From: a virus
IMG/VR virus record: IMGVR_UViG_3300047548_001390
Span: 1 to 64,000 of that record
Strand: one strand, 5' to 3'
DNA: 64,000 nt
The notes under the pieces were generated by a model that was not told the DNA's origin, did no database searches, and worked only from the letters and a program-made list of their open reading frames with translations. Positions within the stretch are counted from its first letter, which is position 1; every line of letters begins with the position of its first letter. Of the stretch, positions 23,333 through 35,465 are shown in pieces. Position numbers and translations under genes: made by a program.

Positions 23333-24000
23333 AATCCAAACCTTCCACGAATTGCTCTAAAATTATCTAAAACTTGTTGGTCACTTAATGAAATATTGTA
23401 AGCTAATACCATTGACATATCACCTTGCCAATATCCGGCATATCCGGCACCGATAGTTATATTTGCTGATGTATATGTTAATTGTCCATACGAATGTGCT
23501 GTTGTGGATGATAAGCTACCGTTAATATACCACTTATGTTGATTGAAATCACGGGTAATACACATGACATTCCAAACGTTTCTAGGAGTAGTTGGGCTAG
23601 CAATGCCTATGTAAGGTACGTTGTTTGCTCCAGCATCACCAATATACTGACTTATATTATCTCCTTGCTCATGAGTCCAAGTTCCATACCCACCATATGC
23701 CTGATCCCACGGATTGCGCCTACCGGACGTATATGTGTGCCTCATCACAATCATGAGTGTTTGATTGTTAGAAAAATCCAATGTTGAATTATTCGTAACT
23801 GTTCCGGAATTGGAAGTACCGTTAAAGGTAAAATAAGGTCTCGTAAATGTAGGTGTTGACGTCCAAACACAGTGATTATTGTTTCCGCTTACATCAAACC
23901 ACGTTGACCCTGTACCTGGATAGCTTTTGACGTTTGCTGCATCAAGACAAAGTACTAATCCATCAGTAATAATAGTCGTACCATACTCAATTGCCATCAA
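23329..24000 (-). CDS. LamG/ConA-like lectin domain protein
   Basis: IITDGLVLCLDAAN.KSYPGTGSTWFD.SGN, NF.A.RGRFG end. Confidence 0.85.
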   Translation of the reverse strand: MMAIEYGTTIITDGLVLCLDAANVKSYPGTGSTWFDVSGNNNHCVWTSTPTFTRPYFTFNGTSNSGTVTNNSTLDFSNNQTLMIVMRHTYTSGRRNPWDQAYGGYGTWTHEQGDNISQYIGDAGANNVPYIGIASPTTPRNVWNVMCITRDFNQHKWYINGSLSSTTAHSYGQLTYTSANITIGAGYAGYWQGDMSMVLAYNISLSDQQVLDNFRAIRGRFGL

Positions 24001-26921
24001 TCAGTCTCCACTTGCAACTTATCAATATCGACACGTTCCGCTAACACATAGTAATAACAGTTGATATCTGTACTCATAAAATTATCATTCCCAACATACA
24101 CTTTGTTGTCTTCAACTTTCTTAACATACAGTTTCTGGTGTTTTCCAATAGGTGTAAGTTGAACAGTAATTGATTCTGGATCAACTAACTTTGTCCAGTA
24201 GTCCGGTAATTCAATTACATTCCCTGTAAGTTTTCCACGAACATAAACGCCGTTCTCTGGACCTTCCAAAGAACCATAAATTAACCTCTTACCCTCTTTA
24301 GTTGGGTGAGGGATAGAGAACGACTTGGATACAGCAGATATTGTACCAGTTGCTGCATTAAATGATAATTTTGTTGTAGTTACTTTAGGTGTCTGATTAG
24401 ATCCAGCAGCACCAACCATGACAGGATATAGAGTAACGGTTGACGTGTCATCAGTTGCGTTAATTGCAGTTGATGGGCCGCTGGCACCACTGATACCAGA
24501 CCAACCTGAATATCCAGAAATACCCGAGTATCCACTAAATCCAGAATCACCATTAGATCCAATTACTCCATCTTGTCCTGAGTACCCACTAAAACCTGAG
24601 TAACCAGAAAATCCGGATGCACCGTCACCACCAAGTACACCATCTTGCCCTGAGTAACCACTTATTCCGGAGTATCCAGAATAACCAGAAATACCACTGT
24701 ACCCCGAGGCACCAATTTCTCCGGAATAACCAGAGAACCCAGATTCACCTTGTGGTCCAGTTTCTCCAGAAAATCCTGAATAGCCACTAAAGCCAGAATC
24801 ACCTGAAGCACCAACTTCACCCGACAAGCCGTCTTGACCACTAAACCCTGAGTACCCGGAAATGCCCGAGTAACCACTAGTGCCAGACTCGCCTTGAATA
24901 CCCTGTTCACCTTGCGCACCAGAATATCCGCTGATACCAGACTCTCCAGAATATCCACTAAATCCTGATATGCCGGAGTCACCAGAGTATCCACTAATGC
25001 CGCTGAATCCTGATATTCCAGTCTCTCCTTGAGCGCCATCTTGGCCGGAGTAGCCACTAAATCCAGAATATCCGGAGATACCTGAAGCGCCGGAGTCTCC
25101 ACTAAATCCGGATGCGCCCTCTTGACCGGAGTATCCACTAATGCCGCTGAATCCAGAGTAACCACTGAATCCCGATTGTCCATCTAACCCCGAATAACCC
25201 GAGTAACCAGACTCACCGCTAAACCCTGATTCACCTTGTCCAGAATATCCGCTAATACCACTAAACCCTGAGAAGCCGCTTAACCCCGATATACCTTGCT
25301 CACCTTGGATACCTTGCGCACCAGAAAGATCAGTTACATACTGATATGAAGAGCCGTTCCAAAGATATAACCTTGAGCTCTCTGCATCTTCCACATTACC
25401 AGTATCGATAATAGCAAATTGACCTGCTGTGATACCTGTTGGCGATGTATCTGCTGTTAATGCTGCAACTGAACTATAAGTTTTGGCAATAGTGAATCCC
25501 ATACCAACAGCACCACTGAATCCTGAGAATCCACTAATACCTGAATATCCAGAAATACCAGATTCACCTTGAATACCATCTTGTCCTGAATATCCACTGA
25601 AGCCTGAGTACCCACTAAATCCTGATTCCCCATTAGCACCAGATTCACCTGAGAATCCGGAATATCCAGAAATACCAGATTCACCTTGGATGCCGTCTTG
25701 TCCTGAGTATCCACTGAAGCCGCTTGTACCAGAATACCCACTGATACCAGATTCGCCTTGAGCGCCATCTTGGCCAGAATAACCACTAAATCCAGAATTA
25801 CCTGAGAAACCACTGATACCTGATTCACCTGAATATCCACTTGCACCCGACTCACCTGAGAATCCACTATAACCAGAGATACCCGAGTCTCCGGAAATAC
25901 CAGAATCGCCACTATAACCGGAGATACCGGAGTATCCCGATTCGCCAGAACCCCCACTGAATCCCGATTCTCCTGAGTATCCACTAATGCCGCTATAACC
26001 AGAGATACCCGAGTCTCCGGAGTATCCACTGATACCACTAGCGCCCGATTCTCCTGAGAATCCACTGTAGCCAGAAATACCAGAGTCTCCACTGAATCCA
26101 GATATACCCGATGTGCCTTCTTGTCCTGAATATCCACTGAACCCAGATTCTCCGGAATAACCACTAAACCCAGAGGTACCCGATGCGCCCTCTTGACCAG
26201 AGTAACCGCTAAATCCGCTGTAACCAGAATATCCGGATAATCCTGGAACATCGCCAGGTTGAACATTTTCCCAACGTCCAGCTGTAGAGTTGTATACAAT
26301 TAAATCGTTATTTGCAAGTGTTCCAAATTCGACGTTAGAGTCAGTTCCACCAAGAACTGAACCATTAGTCATCCTAACGTAAATACGACCAGTACTTGCG
26401 TGCTGACGAAGAACAATTGCTATTGGGGTTTTGATATTTGGTGCGGATGGTTTTGTAGAGGTCCATCCACCTGCAACAGCAGGGTTTGGGTAGAGAATTG
26501 TACCAACTGCATATGCACTGGTGTTGACGTCACGAACAACGCCATTTGTAATAATTTGTGCAAACTCATCGTCAGTGGTGATGTCACGAGTAGCAACACC
26601 AATCATGTATTCTGGAGCAACGGTACCATTTGTTACAGCAGCAGCAATAGTGATCTTGTCACCTTGCGCTCCAGTCGCCATAACAAAAGAACCGTTGGGA
26701 ATTGTTATGCCTGATGTGTTTTTACACGGCGGCATGAAGAACTCTTGACCAACCTGTTGGACGACACCATTATCGTGCCCAACATTAAGAGTATCATCTT
26801 CTGTGTTATACCATACACGACCTAGAGCAGGAGTTGCTGCTGTAGTGGTATCAAAGTCTACATAAACAACACCAGCATATGGTGCTAAAAGACCATTCTT
26901 GGCCTTAAATTCGTTTGCCAT
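23997..26921 (-). CDS. collagen-like Gly-X-Ser repeat fibre protein
   Basis: Two long (G-X-S)n blocks (SGYSGFSGISG); C-terminal KSFSIPHP..LEGPE..LPDYW domain. Confidence 0.8.
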   Translation of the reverse strand: MANEFKAKNGLLAPYAGVVYVDFDTTTAATPALGRVWYNTEDDTLNVGHDNGVVQQVGQEFFMPPCKNTSGITIPNGSFVMATGAQGDKITIAAAVTNGTVAPEYMIGVATRDITTDDEFAQIITNGVVRDVNTSAYAVGTILYPNPAVAGGWTSTKPSAPNIKTPIAIVLRQHASTGRIYVRMTNGSVLGGTDSNVEFGTLANNDLIVYNSTAGRWENVQPGDVPGLSGYSGYSGFSGYSGQEGASGTSGFSGYSGESGFSGYSGQEGTSGISGFSGDSGISGYSGFSGESGASGISGYSGDSGISGYSGISGYSGESGFSGGSGESGYSGISGYSGDSGISGDSGISGYSGFSGESGASGYSGESGISGFSGNSGFSGYSGQDGAQGESGISGYSGTSGFSGYSGQDGIQGESGISGYSGFSGESGANGESGFSGYSGFSGYSGQDGIQGESGISGYSGISGFSGFSGAVGMGFTIAKTYSSVAALTADTSPTGITAGQFAIIDTGNVEDAESSRLYLWNGSSYQYVTDLSGAQGIQGEQGISGLSGFSGFSGISGYSGQGESGFSGESGYSGYSGLDGQSGFSGYSGFSGISGYSGQEGASGFSGDSGASGISGYSGFSGYSGQDGAQGETGISGFSGISGYSGDSGISGFSGYSGESGISGYSGAQGEQGIQGESGTSGYSGISGYSGFSGQDGLSGEVGASGDSGFSGYSGFSGETGPQGESGFSGYSGEIGASGYSGISGYSGYSGISGYSGQDGVLGGDGASGFSGYSGFSGYSGQDGVIGSNGDSGFSGYSGISGYSGWSGISGASGPSTAINATDDTSTVTLYPVMVGAAGSNQTPKVTTTKLSFNAATGTISAVSKSFSIPHPTKEGKRLIYGSLEGPENGVYVRGKLTGNVIELPDYWTKLVDPESITVQLTPIGKHQKLYVKKVEDNKVYVGNDNFMSTDINCYYYVLAERVDIDKLQVETD
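24480..26240 (-). repeat. degenerate 9-bp-period coding repeat (Gly-X-Ser) in two blocks separated by a globular insert at about 25330-25505
   Basis: Tripeptide periodicity in the protein with synonymous variation in the DNA. Confidence 0.9.
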
Positions 26922-31606: not shown

Positions 31607-32455
31607 TTATGGCTGATCCCATATATTAGTCGCCTTAAAAAACTGTCCGTTTGTATAATCAGTATAAAAATCAAAATTATCTATTGTAACACCCTCCATG
31701 TAGGCATATTTTTTTACATCATTGAAATACACATCTGCAGTGTACTTTTCCATTGGTAAAACATTTTTATCACGAATCTTACATTCGCGGAGATGGTCAA
31801 CCCCTTCTTTCCCCCAGATACCAGTTAATAAATGCCGAGTAATAATTTTTGGATGGTAAGCCATTCCGTGATTATTGAACAATTCTCCTGGAAGTGGAGT
31901 GATCCTTTTGTATCCGTATTCTTTAATTGCTTCAAACACAAGTTTAGGTCCAGCCACATTAAGAACAAACTCTCTGTTTGATTGCTGATCAAAAGGTAAG
32001 GTAATCTTTGTTGTTTCTTTCAGTCTGTTGAACGATGCAACAGCCATCTCCATACAGGTCTCAAAAAACGTATGACCAGCTGAAGATATCATCAAAGCGT
32101 TTTCGATAGGAATATCACCATACGGTGCCTGAACAATGTATACTCCTGACCTCAAATTGCGGTCAAATCTATGATAGCAGAACACATCCATATCTGCATA
32201 GATTCCACCATACTTGTGGAGTATACAGAATCTAGCAAAATCAATTTTCATGATGTGAGCAGGGAACTGTTGGAAGGTTTCCCAGTACTGCGGATAGTGT
32301 GTTTCAATTAAATTGTCGAGATCTTCGTGGTCATTCCAAAGTTTGAACTGATAGTCCGGAAATTTGGACAACCACGAATCTCGACAAGGTTTCCATAAAG
32401 GATGCCACTTTGATTCGTCACTTGGTGCTATATGATGTATAATTTTTGGAATCAT
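31607..32455 (-). CDS. GT32/OCH1-like DXD glycosyltransferase
   Basis: MIPKIIH, DFARFCILHKYGGIYADMD, AGP. Confidence 0.9.
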   Translation of the reverse strand: MIPKIIHHIAPSDESKWHPLWKPCRDSWLSKFPDYQFKLWNDHEDLDNLIETHYPQYWETFQQFPAHIMKIDFARFCILHKYGGIYADMDVFCYHRFDRNLRSGVYIVQAPYGDIPIENALMISSAGHTFFETCMEMAVASFNRLKETTKITLPFDQQSNREFVLNVAGPKLVFEAIKEYGYKRITPLPGELFNNHGMAYHPKIITRHLLTGIWGKEGVDHLRECKIRDKNVLPMEKYTADVYFNDVKKYAYMEGVTIDNFDFYTDYTNGQFFKATNIWDQP

Positions 32456-32479
32456 ATTATAACCTTAGTCACGTTTTTG

Positions 32480-32594
32480 TCAGTTTTAACGTTATGTTGT
32501 TTTAAAATATCTGAGAATTCCTTGTTGCTTGCGTTATTTGCATTAATAAATTGTATGTTAATTTATAAATTGGTAGTTCTTTTGTTTGTGCCAT
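32480..32594 (-). pseudogene. avd: truncated, frameshifted avd-like (DGR accessory four-helix-bundle) remnant
   Basis: 32502-32594 encodes MAQTKELPIYKLTYNLLMQITQATRN(SQIF*), and a shifted frame continues LRYFKTT*. This resembles the Avd N-terminus pattern LPIYK..Y.LL......N.PR.FK. It lies 29 nt after the DGR-type target gene. Confidence 0.7.
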
Positions 32595-32623
32595 AATATA
32601 TTCTCAGTTTAAATAATTAAATG

Positions 32624-33973
32624 TTAAATTACAAATCTCCGGACTGCGCGGACCCTGGCGCTGAAAGTCTTATTGGTGTTGCTCGGGGAGCCACCGTTGA
32701 AATCCTGGAACCAAGCATTGGAAGCACCGACCTCGCTGGAAGACCAGTAGTTGTCTGCGTCATTGGTTTCACCAGAAGGTAACGAAGCCCGATTGACCCA
32801 AGCAAGATTTAATTCATCTTTAGCTGGAAGGTACCAATCTGAGAATCCACTAATACTCAGTCCTCTTGTATAAAAAGCAGCAGGATGTGTTGAATTGTTC
32901 ATGTTATTAGTATTTGTCCAGCCATCAACCAAAGATGTTGTTCCACTAGTTGTTGTGCCAGTGGTTTTCCATTGTAACGTAGATGCAGACTGGCCCGATG
33001 CCTTTGGCGCTAACAGTATACCATACCATACCCCACTTACACTTATATGTCCAATAAAATATCCGCCATCAATTAGAGAACCAAGCGTTGAAGTGTAAAT
33101 ACTAAATCTCCGGACTGCGCGGACCCTGTAGCCGGTAGTCTTAGTGGTGCTGATCTGGTCGCCACTGGAGAAGTCCTGGCCCCAAGCCTCGGTTTCAGTG
33201 CGATGACTGGAAGACCAGTAGGAGACTGCATCATTAGCTTCACCGGAGGGTAATGACGCACGAGAGGTCCAAGCAAGATTTAGCTCGTCTCTAGCTGGAA
33301 GATACCAGTCTGCATATCCAGATGCAACGATCCCTCTTGTATAGCTTGCTGCAGCATGCGAAGAGTCGTTCATAAAGTTCGTATTGGCCCAGCCATTGAT
33401 TGCAGATGAGGTTCCACCAGTTGTTGTGCCAGTGGTTTTCCATTGTAACGTAGATGCAGACTGGCCCGATGCCTTAGGTGCTAACAGTATACCATATAGT
33501 ACTCCATTTACACCTAGAGCTCCAATATAATAACCACCTTGATATGATGCACCAAGTGAAGATGCGAATGAAGAGTTAGTAACAAAAGTTGTTCCGGACG
33601 ACCAGGCAGAATAAGTTCCATTTGCATCTTTATAACGCACTCTCCAGTAATATGTGGTGGAGTTACTCAACATTCTCCTTGGGTTAAAAGTATAGGATGT
33701 ACTAGTTCCTGCAATGTCACCGGTGGAAATCACAGTGCTTGCGAAGTTTGATACTGTTGACACCTGAAACTGCGCAGCTGCCATTGAAACGCCATTAAAT
33801 GATGTATATGATGACCCGATTAATGTAATATTTTCAAAATTTGCACCAGTATTTGTAGTACCATCAGCAGGAGTCACATTAGTTGGTTTAATGAGACCTG
33901 TTAGCTGAGTCCCATCACCAATGAATTCTTTGTTATCTGTGATAACAGTAACGCCAGAAATTTTAACAGCCAT
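32624..33973 (-). CDS. virion adhesin: FN3-like domain plus two tandem DUF1566 (CLec-fold) domains; DGR target-type protein
   Basis: YYWRVRYKD; two copies of DWYLPA.DEL...YWSSS...AW.QDF..G......K.....RVRAVRRF. Confidence 0.88.
   Translation of the reverse strand: MAVKISGVTVITDNKEFIGDGTQLTGLIKPTNVTPADGTTNTGANFENITLIGSSYTSFNGVSMAAAQFQVSTVSNFASTVISTGDIAGTSTSYTFNPRRMLSNSTTYYWRVRYKDANGTYSAWSSGTTFVTNSSFASSLGASYQGGYYIGALGVNGVLYGILLAPKASGQSASTLQWKTTGTTTGGTSSAINGWANTNFMNDSSHAAASYTRGIVASGYADWYLPARDELNLAWTSRASLPSGEANDAVSYWSSSHRTETEAWGQDFSSGDQISTTKTTGYRVRAVRRFSIYTSTLGSLIDGGYFIGHISVSGVWYGILLAPKASGQSASTLQWKTTGTTTSGTTSLVDGWTNTNNMNNSTHPAAFYTRGLSISGFSDWYLPAKDELNLAWVNRASLPSGETNDADNYWSSSEVGASNAWFQDFNGGSPSNTNKTFSARVRAVRRFVI
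32633..32758 (-). repeat. DGR variable region VR2 with IMH-like 3' end
   Basis: Paralogous to VR1 at an offset of 471 bp; 25 identical 3' bases (32633-32657); mismatches at codon positions 1-2. Confidence 0.8.
33104..33229 (-). repeat. DGR variable region VR1 (internal) with IMH-like 3' end
   Basis: See VR2; identical block 33104-33128 CAGGGTCCGCGCAGTCCGGAGATTT. Confidence 0.8.
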
Positions 33974-33984
33974 TTTGATTTCCT

Positions 33985-34542
33985 TTATTGAATATTAAAA
34001 GCAACAACAAATACTTCATCTAATTGTTCTTTTGTCCAACCCATTTGCTTGTACAGTTCTTGTATCGTGGGGCTATTTTTTCTCACTTCAGTTGCATATT
34101 CCCATTCAATCAGCACTTTTGTCTTCATTGGTTCTTGTAAACCTTCAACAAAAGATTGTACTTCAGCCAATTTACCAAGCTCAAGCAGAGCCAATCTAAT
34201 TTGTCTAGCACTAGCGACAGAAGGTAATCTCGCCTTCATCTCGTCTGCTTTAGCTTGATCATATTGTTGTTGAGCAGTTGTTGTTTCCGTCACTGGATTA
34301 CCATCAGCGTCAAGAGTTGACGTTGTAATATCCTTAAACACGTGTACAACACCTTCTACTAACAGGTTTGCATCATCATCGCAGGTGCCATAGTATTTTG
34401 GTACTCGGGTTGGCCAAACACTTTCATCCCACCATTCGATTGCTAACCCTTTTATATCAGGATATTTGGGACCATTGATGGTGGGAGATTTTGAAGCAGA
34501 GACCCCGGTAACGGAATCTACGTGGGTAACACAGATATACAT
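33985..34542 (-). CDS. putative tail fibre assembly/accessory protein
   Basis: NGP.YP, YYGTCDDDA, SARQIRLAL, IEWEYAT, LDE.F; adjacent to the adhesin. Confidence 0.6.
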   Translation of the reverse strand: MYICVTHVDSVTGVSASKSPTINGPKYPDIKGLAIEWWDESVWPTRVPKYYGTCDDDANLLVEGVVHVFKDITTSTLDADGNPVTETTTAQQQYDQAKADEMKARLPSVASARQIRLALLELGKLAEVQSFVEGLQEPMKTKVLIEWEYATEVRKNSPTIQELYKQMGWTKEQLDEVFVVAFNIQ

Positions 34543-34619: not shown

Positions 34620-35465
34620 CTACTGGTTTTCTAATTTATAAAGGCGTGCTGATAATTCTTTTATTGACTCTATTAAATATGCTGTTAATCCAGCATAGTT
34701 GACATTTTTAATTCCGTCAACACTTTGATCTACTAGGTGAGGTAAAATATTCTCTAACTCTTGCGCAATAACACCAGCAGATTTTTTGCCATTGTCTTTC
34801 CATTCAAATTCAACGCCTCTCAATTGATTAACGATCGACGTTGCATCCATAACATTATTTATGTTGTTTTTGAGTACGATGTCAGAGGTTGAATTAAAAT
34901 TTGTTGTGGTTAGCGTTCCTGTACCCGAATCATACGTCAAATTAGTCGACCATGACGTTGAAGTTCCGTTTGTCGTTAAAAGACGTCCAGCGTTTCCGGT
35001 TTGAGTTGGTAACACTTTCGTTTCGTTTAATGAGGTAATCCATGCTGGATTAGCATACGATCCCGTTATAAGTACAGCATTTGTTACTTTGGAGCCAGCT
35101 AAACTGGTAATCCAAGAAGGATCAGCAATTGTTCCTGTTAATTTAACAACATCCAAAGAAGTAATCCAACCAGGATTGGCAGCTGTCCCTGTTAATTTAA
35201 CAACATCCAAAGAAGTAATCCAGGCAGGATTTGGATACGTTGCTGTTGTGTAGACACCATTCGTAACGGTTGCAGCGTTACCACTAATCGAGATACCCCA
35301 CGTCCCCGATGCCCCTCCGCCTACCAACGTTGGTTTATTAGCAAGATCATCATTAATTGACTTGAAGTTTCCATCAACCTCTAAGTTCGTTAACGGCGCA
35401 TTCTTGACCGTTGTGGAAGTAGGAGTTGTTGCAGATGCAGAGGTTCTATACAGTAAATTAGCCAT
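34620..35465 (-). CDS. tail fibre protein with PxWITSL repeats and S74 chaperone
   Basis: KNAPLTNLEVDGNF N-terminus, four PxWITSL repeats, SD..LK.NI / GVIAQELE. Confidence 0.85.
   Translation of the reverse strand: MANLLYRTSASATTPTSTTVKNAPLTNLEVDGNFKSINDDLANKPTLVGGGASGTWGISISGNAATVTNGVYTTATYPNPAWITSLDVVKLTGTAANPGWITSLDVVKLTGTIADPSWITSLAGSKVTNAVLITGSYANPAWITSLNETKVLPTQTGNAGRLLTTNGTSTSWSTNLTYDSGTGTLTTTNFNSTSDIVLKNNINNVMDATSIVNQLRGVEFEWKDNGKKSAGVIAQELENILPHLVDQSVDGIKNVNYAGLTAYLIESIKELSARLYKLENQ
35134..35222. repeat. 35-bp exact direct repeat, 54-bp period
   Basis: cctgttaatttaacaacatccaaagaagtaatcca at 35134-35168 and 35188-35222. Confidence 0.9.

Follow-up and report, generated by a model that had tools for sequence, protein, structure and literature searches.

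Diversity-generating retroelements (DGRs) have their prototype in Bordetella phage BPP-1, whose mtd-avd-TR-brt cassette couples a tail-fibre-associated target, with its variable region (VR) in a C-terminal lectin-like position, to a template repeat (TR) rich in AAY codons and a GC-rich boundary, the IMH (initiation of mutagenic homing). We describe here a phage gene that carries two such variable regions, found at positions 32624 to 33973 of a 64-kb stretch of DNA (the window, positions 1 to 64,000 of the 78,106-bp IMG/VR record IMGVR_UViG_3300047548_001390). CheckV estimates the record to be about 49% complete, which puts the full genome at about 160 kb. We consider it likely that this locus is a relic DGR, in which a cassette once rewrote both variable regions and has since been lost, leaving the two frozen.

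Neither several VRs nor the domain type seen here would be new to DGRs. In the survey of Yan et al. (2019, BMC Genomics; PMC6642488), 28.6% of DGRs had several VRs and 31 had several VRs within one open reading frame (ORF), and a Vibrio cholerae DGR uses one TR for two targets of the DUF1566 type (PMC6642488). DGR-encoding viruses that can be classified are nearly all Caudovirales, and their biomes include freshwater (bioRxiv 10.1101/2020.04.01.020958). A literature search turned up no description of a DGR in a T4-like phage, which we take as a weak negative.

Two variable regions in one target gene

The gene and its parts are as follows.

32624..33973, minus strand: former DGR target gene, 449 aa (ORF; PF07603 twice; PF25788; AlphaFold model with pLDDT 89.8)
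33095..33565, minus strand: repeat copy 1, the first Lcl_C/DUF1566 domain (duplication; PF07603; match to structure 8q4e)
32624..33094, minus strand: repeat copy 2, the second Lcl_C/DUF1566 domain, stop codon included (duplication; PF07603; match to Bd2740)
33129..33226, minus strand: VR1, repeat codons 114-146 (comparison of the copies; aligns to the TR and VR of the related locus L005)
33104..33128, minus strand: invariant GC-rich 25-mer after VR1, IMH-like (in L005 the identity of TR and VR ends at the corresponding place)
32658..32755, minus strand: VR2, repeat codons 114-146 of copy 2 (comparison of the copies; contigs of two other sequencing runs diverge here)
32633..32657, minus strand: invariant GC-rich 25-mer after VR2, IMH-like (identical to the 25-mer after VR1)
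33560..33907, minus strand: FN3/Ig-like domain, residues ~23-138 (PF25788 at residues 60-132; structural matches with Z 9-12.5)

The two copies of the 471-bp tandem duplication (33095-33565 and 32624-33094) differ at 121 positions and are thus about 74% identical, and the distribution of these differences over codon positions separates the variable regions from the rest of the repeat. In repeat codons 129-146, the 18 that lead up to RVRAVRR, there are 17 base differences, seven at the first codon position, nine at the second and one at the third, a ratio of positions 1-2 to position 3 of 16:1 as against 46:39 in the scaffold (codons 1-113; p=0.002). Counted by codon, 39 of the 113 in the scaffold have a different third position, as against a single one of the 27 that make up the 3' part of the VR and the invariant stretch behind it (Fisher p=7e-4). 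Codon pairs such as GGC/TTC, TCC/AAC, GAC/TCC, ACC/TTC and TAC/GCC illustrate the pattern. In VR1 the clean signature occupies the 3' part, 33129-33184; further 5' in the VRs (codons 114-127), four third positions differ between the copies. Codons ending in C number 23 of 38 in the VRs (61%) as against 52 of 362 (14%) outside them, no VR codon ends in A, and the GC content of the VRs is 56-58% in a window of 40%. Both VRs run into the same 25-mer, CAGGGTCCGCGCAGTCCGGAGATTT, the 24-mer of which occurs twice in the window and in none of 100 shuffles; in sequence and position it is the shared GC-rich 3' boundary that an IMH would form, although its role as one is putative. The pattern of differences between the VRs is beyond chance. 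An initial annotation of the window, made from its letters, had already reported the duplication, the 17 differences with their split over codon positions, the 25 identical bases after each VR and the four third-position differences further upstream, and all of these counts were reproduced.

That third positions are nearly unchanged in the 3' part of the VRs, when 35% of scaffold codons have changed there, argues that a single template supplied both VRs at a time when the duplication was already old. Neither VR can have been the template of the other, because an A stands at only 5 of the 17 differing sites in each. Gene conversion is ruled out as the source of the identical 25-mer, since it would have erased the interspersed differences too. 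Elsewhere in the repeat, a 72-nt block (33419-33490 and 32948-33019; codons 26-49, ILLAPKASGQSASTLQWKTTGTTT) differs at two bases between the copies, where about eight third-position changes would be expected from the scaffold rate. It could be a gene-conversion tract or reflect constraint at the nucleotide level; DGR homing does not account for it.

The annotated template could be compared with real ones, as a scan of IMG/VR returned target homologues at 45-49% identity that include L005 (IMGVR_UViG_3300020047_002722), in which a bAvd gene (PF22296), a TR and a reverse transcriptase (RT) gene (PF00078) directly follow the target. The TR and VR of this locus pair over 129 nt, with 17 of 17 mismatches at TR adenines. 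Its TR reads TGG AAA CAG AAC TTC AAC AAT GGC AAC CAG AAC AAC AAC AAT AAG AAC AAT TCA AAC TAT GTT CGT GCC GTT AGG, and this is almost codon for codon the common template that the initial annotation had reconstructed from the two copies. When the 17 differences between VR1 and VR2 are laid on the L005 TR, 15 fall on its adenines (hypergeometric p=1.8e-5), bearing in mind that this TR is heterologous and not cognate. Across 90 loci from viral and metagenome collections, 12 distinct ones, L005 included, have TR/VR pairs whose mismatches lie mostly or only at adenines. The initial annotation had named as contrary evidence a lack of any TR or RT among relatives, homologues free of such biased variability, or a template with other bases at the variable positions; what we found was relatives with both TR and RT and, in L005, adenine-only mismatches. 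It is strongly supported by these sequence comparisons that both C-terminal patches are DGR-type variable regions, and the two-target gene did once operate with a DGR.

The protein has the build of a DGR target of the DUF1566/Lcl_C class, with each VR at the C-terminal end of a domain that is homologous to the targets of intact DGRs. Its conserved N-terminus starts MAVKISGVTVITDN. Pfam places PF07603 in two stretches (E 5e-21), one per repeat copy, and PF25788 N-terminal to both, so that the C-type lectin/DUF1566 assignment of the initial annotation stands. The AlphaFold model consists of an FN3/Ig-like domain and two similar alpha/beta domains. In structure searches the former resembles the N-terminal Ig domain of a rhamnosidase and FN3 domains (Z 9-12.5), the top solved structure for the first repeat domain is the C-terminal domain of Legionella Lcl (8q4e; Z 14.5, 123 residues, 31% identity), and the second repeat domain (residues 295-448) is matched best by the C-terminal domain of Bdellovibrio Bd2740 (Z 10.7). 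A phmmer search also matches the repeat domains to Lcl of Legionella pneumophila (E 1.4e-7). We predict that the protein is a virion adhesin with two lectin-like (Lcl_C/DUF1566) tips, and think this probable.

Remnants of avd and RT downstream of the target

From the target's stop codon to the next gene, which encodes a glycosyltransferase, there is a gap of 168 nt. It holds two scraps of coding sequence.

32502..32594, minus strand: truncated avd, a 30-codon stub reading MAQTKELPIYKLTYNLLMQITQATRNSQIF and then a stop codon (begins 29 nt past the target's stop codon; Avd homology)
32452..32523, minus strand: remnant of the RT C-terminus, ~22 codons, reading KEFSDILKQHNVKTDKNVTKVII and then a stop codon (hidden Markov model match; its TGA overlaps the ATG of the glycosyltransferase gene)

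The stub shares 14 of 25 residues with the N-terminus of the L005 bAvd (PF22296). When the Avd proteins of ten relatives were used as queries in a six-frame search of the whole 78-kb record, the stub was the top match for eight of them (E 6e-7 to 3e-4) and a weak one for the other two. For the RT end, a hidden Markov model of the C-terminal 70 residues, built on 119 related RTs, was run over the complete set of 2962 fragments that a six-frame translation of the record gives. The sole notable match was the fragment 32562..32455 (E 0.0075), the next best having an E of 2.3, and in the alignment KEFSDILKQHNVKTDKNVTKVI stands against the consensus kkiakklgkrgcwfdgklTKlv. The two scraps lie in different reading frames.

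A contig of 2666 nt from run X2, which belongs to another study, is about 97% identical and covers the glycosyltransferase gene, the stub and the invariant 25-mer. Since this independent contig spans the scar, the scar is not an assembly artefact. In it, 10 of about 100 bases of the stub region have changed, all by transition, compared with about 2.8% of the glycosyltransferase gene; such divergence fits what would be expected of a pseudogene. A relative from run X4, about 86% identical in the glycosyltransferase gene, has 4 nt in place of the 157 nt at 32463-32619, so that the target nearly abuts the glycosyltransferase gene. This junction is either a cleaner second deletion or that of a lineage which never had a cassette there.

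The rest of the element is absent. Neither the window nor the whole 78-kb record contains a TR, which would appear as a third copy of the VR; the template and IMH for which the initial annotation had proposed to search elsewhere in the phage have no further copy in the record. A TR cognate to both VRs would be recognised by the 3' end GTCCGCGCAGTCCGG. The 18-nt core of the IMH has no match in IMG/VR, a longer pattern of the VR end has none in GTDB genomes, and a protein search of GTDB genomes found no homologue. The 78,106-bp record contains no RT (no match to PF00078, and in tblastn with the RTs of eight relatives nothing below E 0.1 except artefacts of reading through a TR), no intact avd (no match to PF22296) and no further Lcl_C gene. 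RT, TR and intact avd are thus all missing from what a functional DGR would have, and the locus holds as a former DGR target. The initial annotation had called the gene a two-target DGR adhesin, and we keep the part of this that concerns the writing of both VRs by a DGR; a working DGR is not supported, with an avd stub and an RT scrap downstream and no TR, RT or intact avd in 78 kb. Recombination between VR and TR was ruled out as the mechanism of deletion, as it would have left the RT intact.

Intact and decayed cassettes among relatives

The closest proteins in a collection of 5.8 billion are P0002, P0003 and P0005, at 61-70% identity, and they have the two-domain build of the window's target. 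Their scaffolds are conserved and their variation follows the pattern xxYWSSSExxxxxAWxQxFxxGxQxxxxKxxxx-VRAVRR; the two copies within P0005 share 84% identity in the scaffold and 54% in the VR. P0005 is encoded on a 122-kb contig and P0004 on one of 98.6 kb. A metagenome scan gave relatives at 55% identity or less only, and the phages in GenBank gave only distant matches from Pseudomonas phages.

Where at least 1.8 kb of sequence follows the target, the cassette is intact in 13 loci, partial in another 13 and absent from 28, and a provirus record estimated to be 100% complete has the target and no RT. Where cassettes have decayed, similar pieces are left. L003 and L004 join avd 1-34 in frame to RT 341-373, and L096 retains avd 2-28, the avd piece LERVQVIEL and RT 345-373; L043, L042, L027, L040 and L061 have decayed cassettes with other breakpoints. 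As the junctions differ among these loci, the deletions were independent. The survival of the avd start and the RT end probably reflects selection against deletions that would run into the 3' end of the target on one side or, on the other, damage the beginning of the downstream gene, which overlaps the RT stop codon. The fused avd N-terminus and RT C-terminus form a mini-ORF of about 55 codons at L003:10900-11067 (also in L004) and L096:456-638. Orphaned DGR targets are common in the protein family of the window's target, and with 31 DGRs on record that have several VRs in one ORF (PMC6642488), the novelty put forward in the initial annotation was overstated.

Targets are arranged in other ways as well. 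The related locus L026 (4403-7461) is an intact DGR in which a single TR goes with two adjacent single-domain DUF1566 targets (201 and 203 aa) that have a VR each; adenines account for about 10 of the 12-14 mismatches, which leaves some change at non-adenine sites. L093 (1488-8982) is an island syntenic with the window and has three cysteine-rich single-domain target paralogues, three GT32-like paralogues and a homologue of the gene next to the window's target. No avd or RT was found in this 25.9-kb record, whose CheckV completeness of 14% suggests a genome of about 185 kb. Finally, among the matches listed (120 of 6303), P0208 is an RT 61% identical to that of the L005 DGR and lies on a contig of 193,300 nt, which could be a large phage with a DGR of the L005 type.

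Probable loss of the element and alternative histories

The history that we favour would begin with duplication of the target domain, after which a DGR would have written both tips from one shared adenine-rich template. The ancestral order would have been target-avd-TR-RT-glycosyltransferase, with the cassette directly downstream of the target. An internal deletion would then have taken the TR together with all but some 30 codons of avd and some 22 of the RT, and the VRs would thereafter have been fixed as two different binding surfaces that change by ordinary mutation and recombination only. Observed are the codon-position signature, the homology of the gene with targets of active DGRs, the pair of scraps and the lack of TR and RT in 78 kb; the order of events we infer.

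A number of observations weigh against this history. Adenine specificity is seen solely against a heterologous TR, and in a record that is about 49% complete a second cassette could sit in the missing half. In the contigs of both run X2 and run X4, VR2 departs from the window, starting at 32654 or 32658, just past the invariant stretch, with no adjacent cassette in either; the 34 bases around the invariant stretch (32620-32653), on the other hand, are identical in the X4 relative, which is about 86% identical elsewhere. This combination would fit continued homing from a conserved template, but old VR alleles that have recombined give the same picture. In addition, non-adenine sites of the VRs show only one or two changes, and so the last homing must have been recent relative to the duplication. 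On statistical grounds, one third-position change in 27 codons would nonetheless allow homing to have ended before the X2 strain split off, in whose glycosyltransferase gene about 8.5% of codons have changed. These comparisons are between assembled contigs, not reads, and X4 holds several related strains.

The same observations would fit an active split system, in which both VRs are still rewritten in trans, by way of their shared 25-nt IMH-like end, by a DGR (TR, RT and avd) that sits either in the host or in the missing half of the ~160-kb genome. A T4-like, presumably virulent myovirus would then be running a remote DGR that hypermutates two sites of one adhesin, and the scar would be an older, superseded copy. 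To the missing sequence, the unchanged 25-mer, the VR2 differences between strains and the almost undiverged third positions can be added that remote targets, and several VRs per TR, are on record (PMC6642488). However, nothing resembling the TR or matching the IMH was found in 78 kb or in IMG/VR, nor the VR-end pattern in GTDB genomes, and the record has no additional Lcl_C target with which a cassette might be retained. It is also unlikely a priori that a phage which has only just lost its cassette would carry another with an identical IMH. Moreover, L003 and L004, which have a comparable scar, are 100% identical across two samples, VR included, and the recombination of old alleles explains the differences between strains equally well. 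We regard a remote DGR as rather unlikely, and infer that none in the unsequenced half still acts on the VRs.

A different possibility is that the VR differences are older than the tandem arrangement, two diversified alleles from different phages having recombined into one gene, so that a two-target DGR never existed. Phage fibre genes are mosaic, the relatives L026 and L093 have two or three separate single-domain targets side by side, and a contig of run X2 follows copy 2 over one part and copy 1 over the adjoining one. Alleles that were joined late should, however, not combine third-position changes in 35% of scaffold codons with a single such change in the 81 nt of 3' VR and IMH, and the two-domain architecture is common to P0002, P0003 and P0005; we think such a joining quite improbable. 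Lastly, it is most improbable that the lineage never had a DGR and that, once the domain was duplicated, the patches diverged through ordinary diversifying selection at residues in contact with the ligand, for although the binding surfaces of phage adhesins do evolve fast and a cognate TR to prove the adenine specificity is missing, selection leaves unexplained the identical third positions, the excess of C-ending codons (23/38 vs 14%) and the GC-rich patch, the coincidence of 15 of 17 differences with the adenines of a relative's TR, and the avd and RT remnants exactly at the expected site of the cassette.

Genomic setting

Three genes flank the target and its scar.

31607..32455, minus strand: GT32-like glycosyltransferase, directly downstream of the scar (PF04488, E 1e-16)
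33985..34542, minus strand: 185-aa 'MYICVTHVD' protein of unassigned function (phrog_6034)
34620..35465, minus strand: fibre protein with a C-terminal S74 intramolecular chaperone domain (PF13884, E 2e-12)

The window also contains a structural module of T4 type, with matches to phrog_138, phrog_213, phrog_23, phrog_219 and phrog_438 (E 1e-90 to 1e-204) that correspond to a gp23-like head protein, a gp20 portal, a gp18 sheath and a baseplate wedge of gp6 type. By this module the phage is T4-like, as the initial annotation had it; it is a freshwater phage and presumably virulent. Homologues of the MYICVT(H/Y)VD protein lie near the target or cassette in nearly all relatives (L003, L005, L011, L041, L093-L099), mostly right after the RT or the target, and ahead of the target in the window and in L093. 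The protein may serve the adhesin as a chaperone or as a partner in assembly. Further away, a 974-aa ORF at 23997-26921 is made up of hundreds of degenerate 9-nt repeats (Gly-X-Ser-like), which dominated the repeat search of the window.

Comparison with known systems

This locus is notable for lying in a T4-like phage, for its fused double tip and for a pattern of cassette loss that recurs. If our account is right, tropism switching driven by a DGR has made its way into the fibre island of a T4-like phage from freshwater, and duplication of a target domain can give one protein two separately diversified binding faces. What remains would be two alternative surfaces for receptor binding, a naturally frozen pair that lends itself to a comparison of ligands. 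Together with its relatives, the locus records how readily DGR cassettes vanish, through internal deletions that repeatedly spare only the start of avd and the end of RT. For annotation, it follows that a VR signature of the DGR kind is by itself no sign of an active element.

Set beside the BPP-1 prototype, the window shares the inferred ancestral order of target, avd, TR and RT, the placing of the VR in a C-terminal lectin-like domain, an inferred template rich in AAY codons, a tail-fibre-associated adhesin as the target and a GC-rich, IMH-like boundary. It differs in that TR, RT and most of avd are gone, in having two VRs in one ORF instead of one, in a domain that is Lcl_C/DUF1566 and not of the Mtd type, and in belonging to a T4-like, presumably virulent phage and not a temperate one. 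The Lcl protein of Legionella pneumophila (8q4e), the founding member of Lcl_C, likewise has the domain as a C-terminal adhesin domain, but without a tandem copy or a phage context, and to our knowledge Lcl is not a DGR target.

The nearest intact systems are the relatives L005, L022/L023/L032, L041, L094, L095 and L098, which have an FN3/Ig plus Lcl_C target ending in VRAVRR, the same codon framework in the VR and the same MYICV neighbour. Their avd is 54-62% identical to the window's stub over about 26 residues. In contrast to the window, each has a single Lcl_C domain with a single VR, and its bAvd-TR-RT cassette is complete; most lie on much smaller contigs. The decayed relatives L003/L004, L096, L043 and L042 resemble the window in having kept the avd N-terminus and the RT C-terminus and lost the middle, with VRs that still show NNC/NNT codons; each has junctions of its own and a single-domain target, and in L003 and L096 the scraps are in frame whereas in the window they lie in different frames. 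Finally, the DGRs with several VRs, that of V. cholerae and L026, match the window in serving two DUF1566 VRs from one template, but in the window's clade the targets have become fused as tandem domains of one protein, and in the window the element that would have written them is gone.

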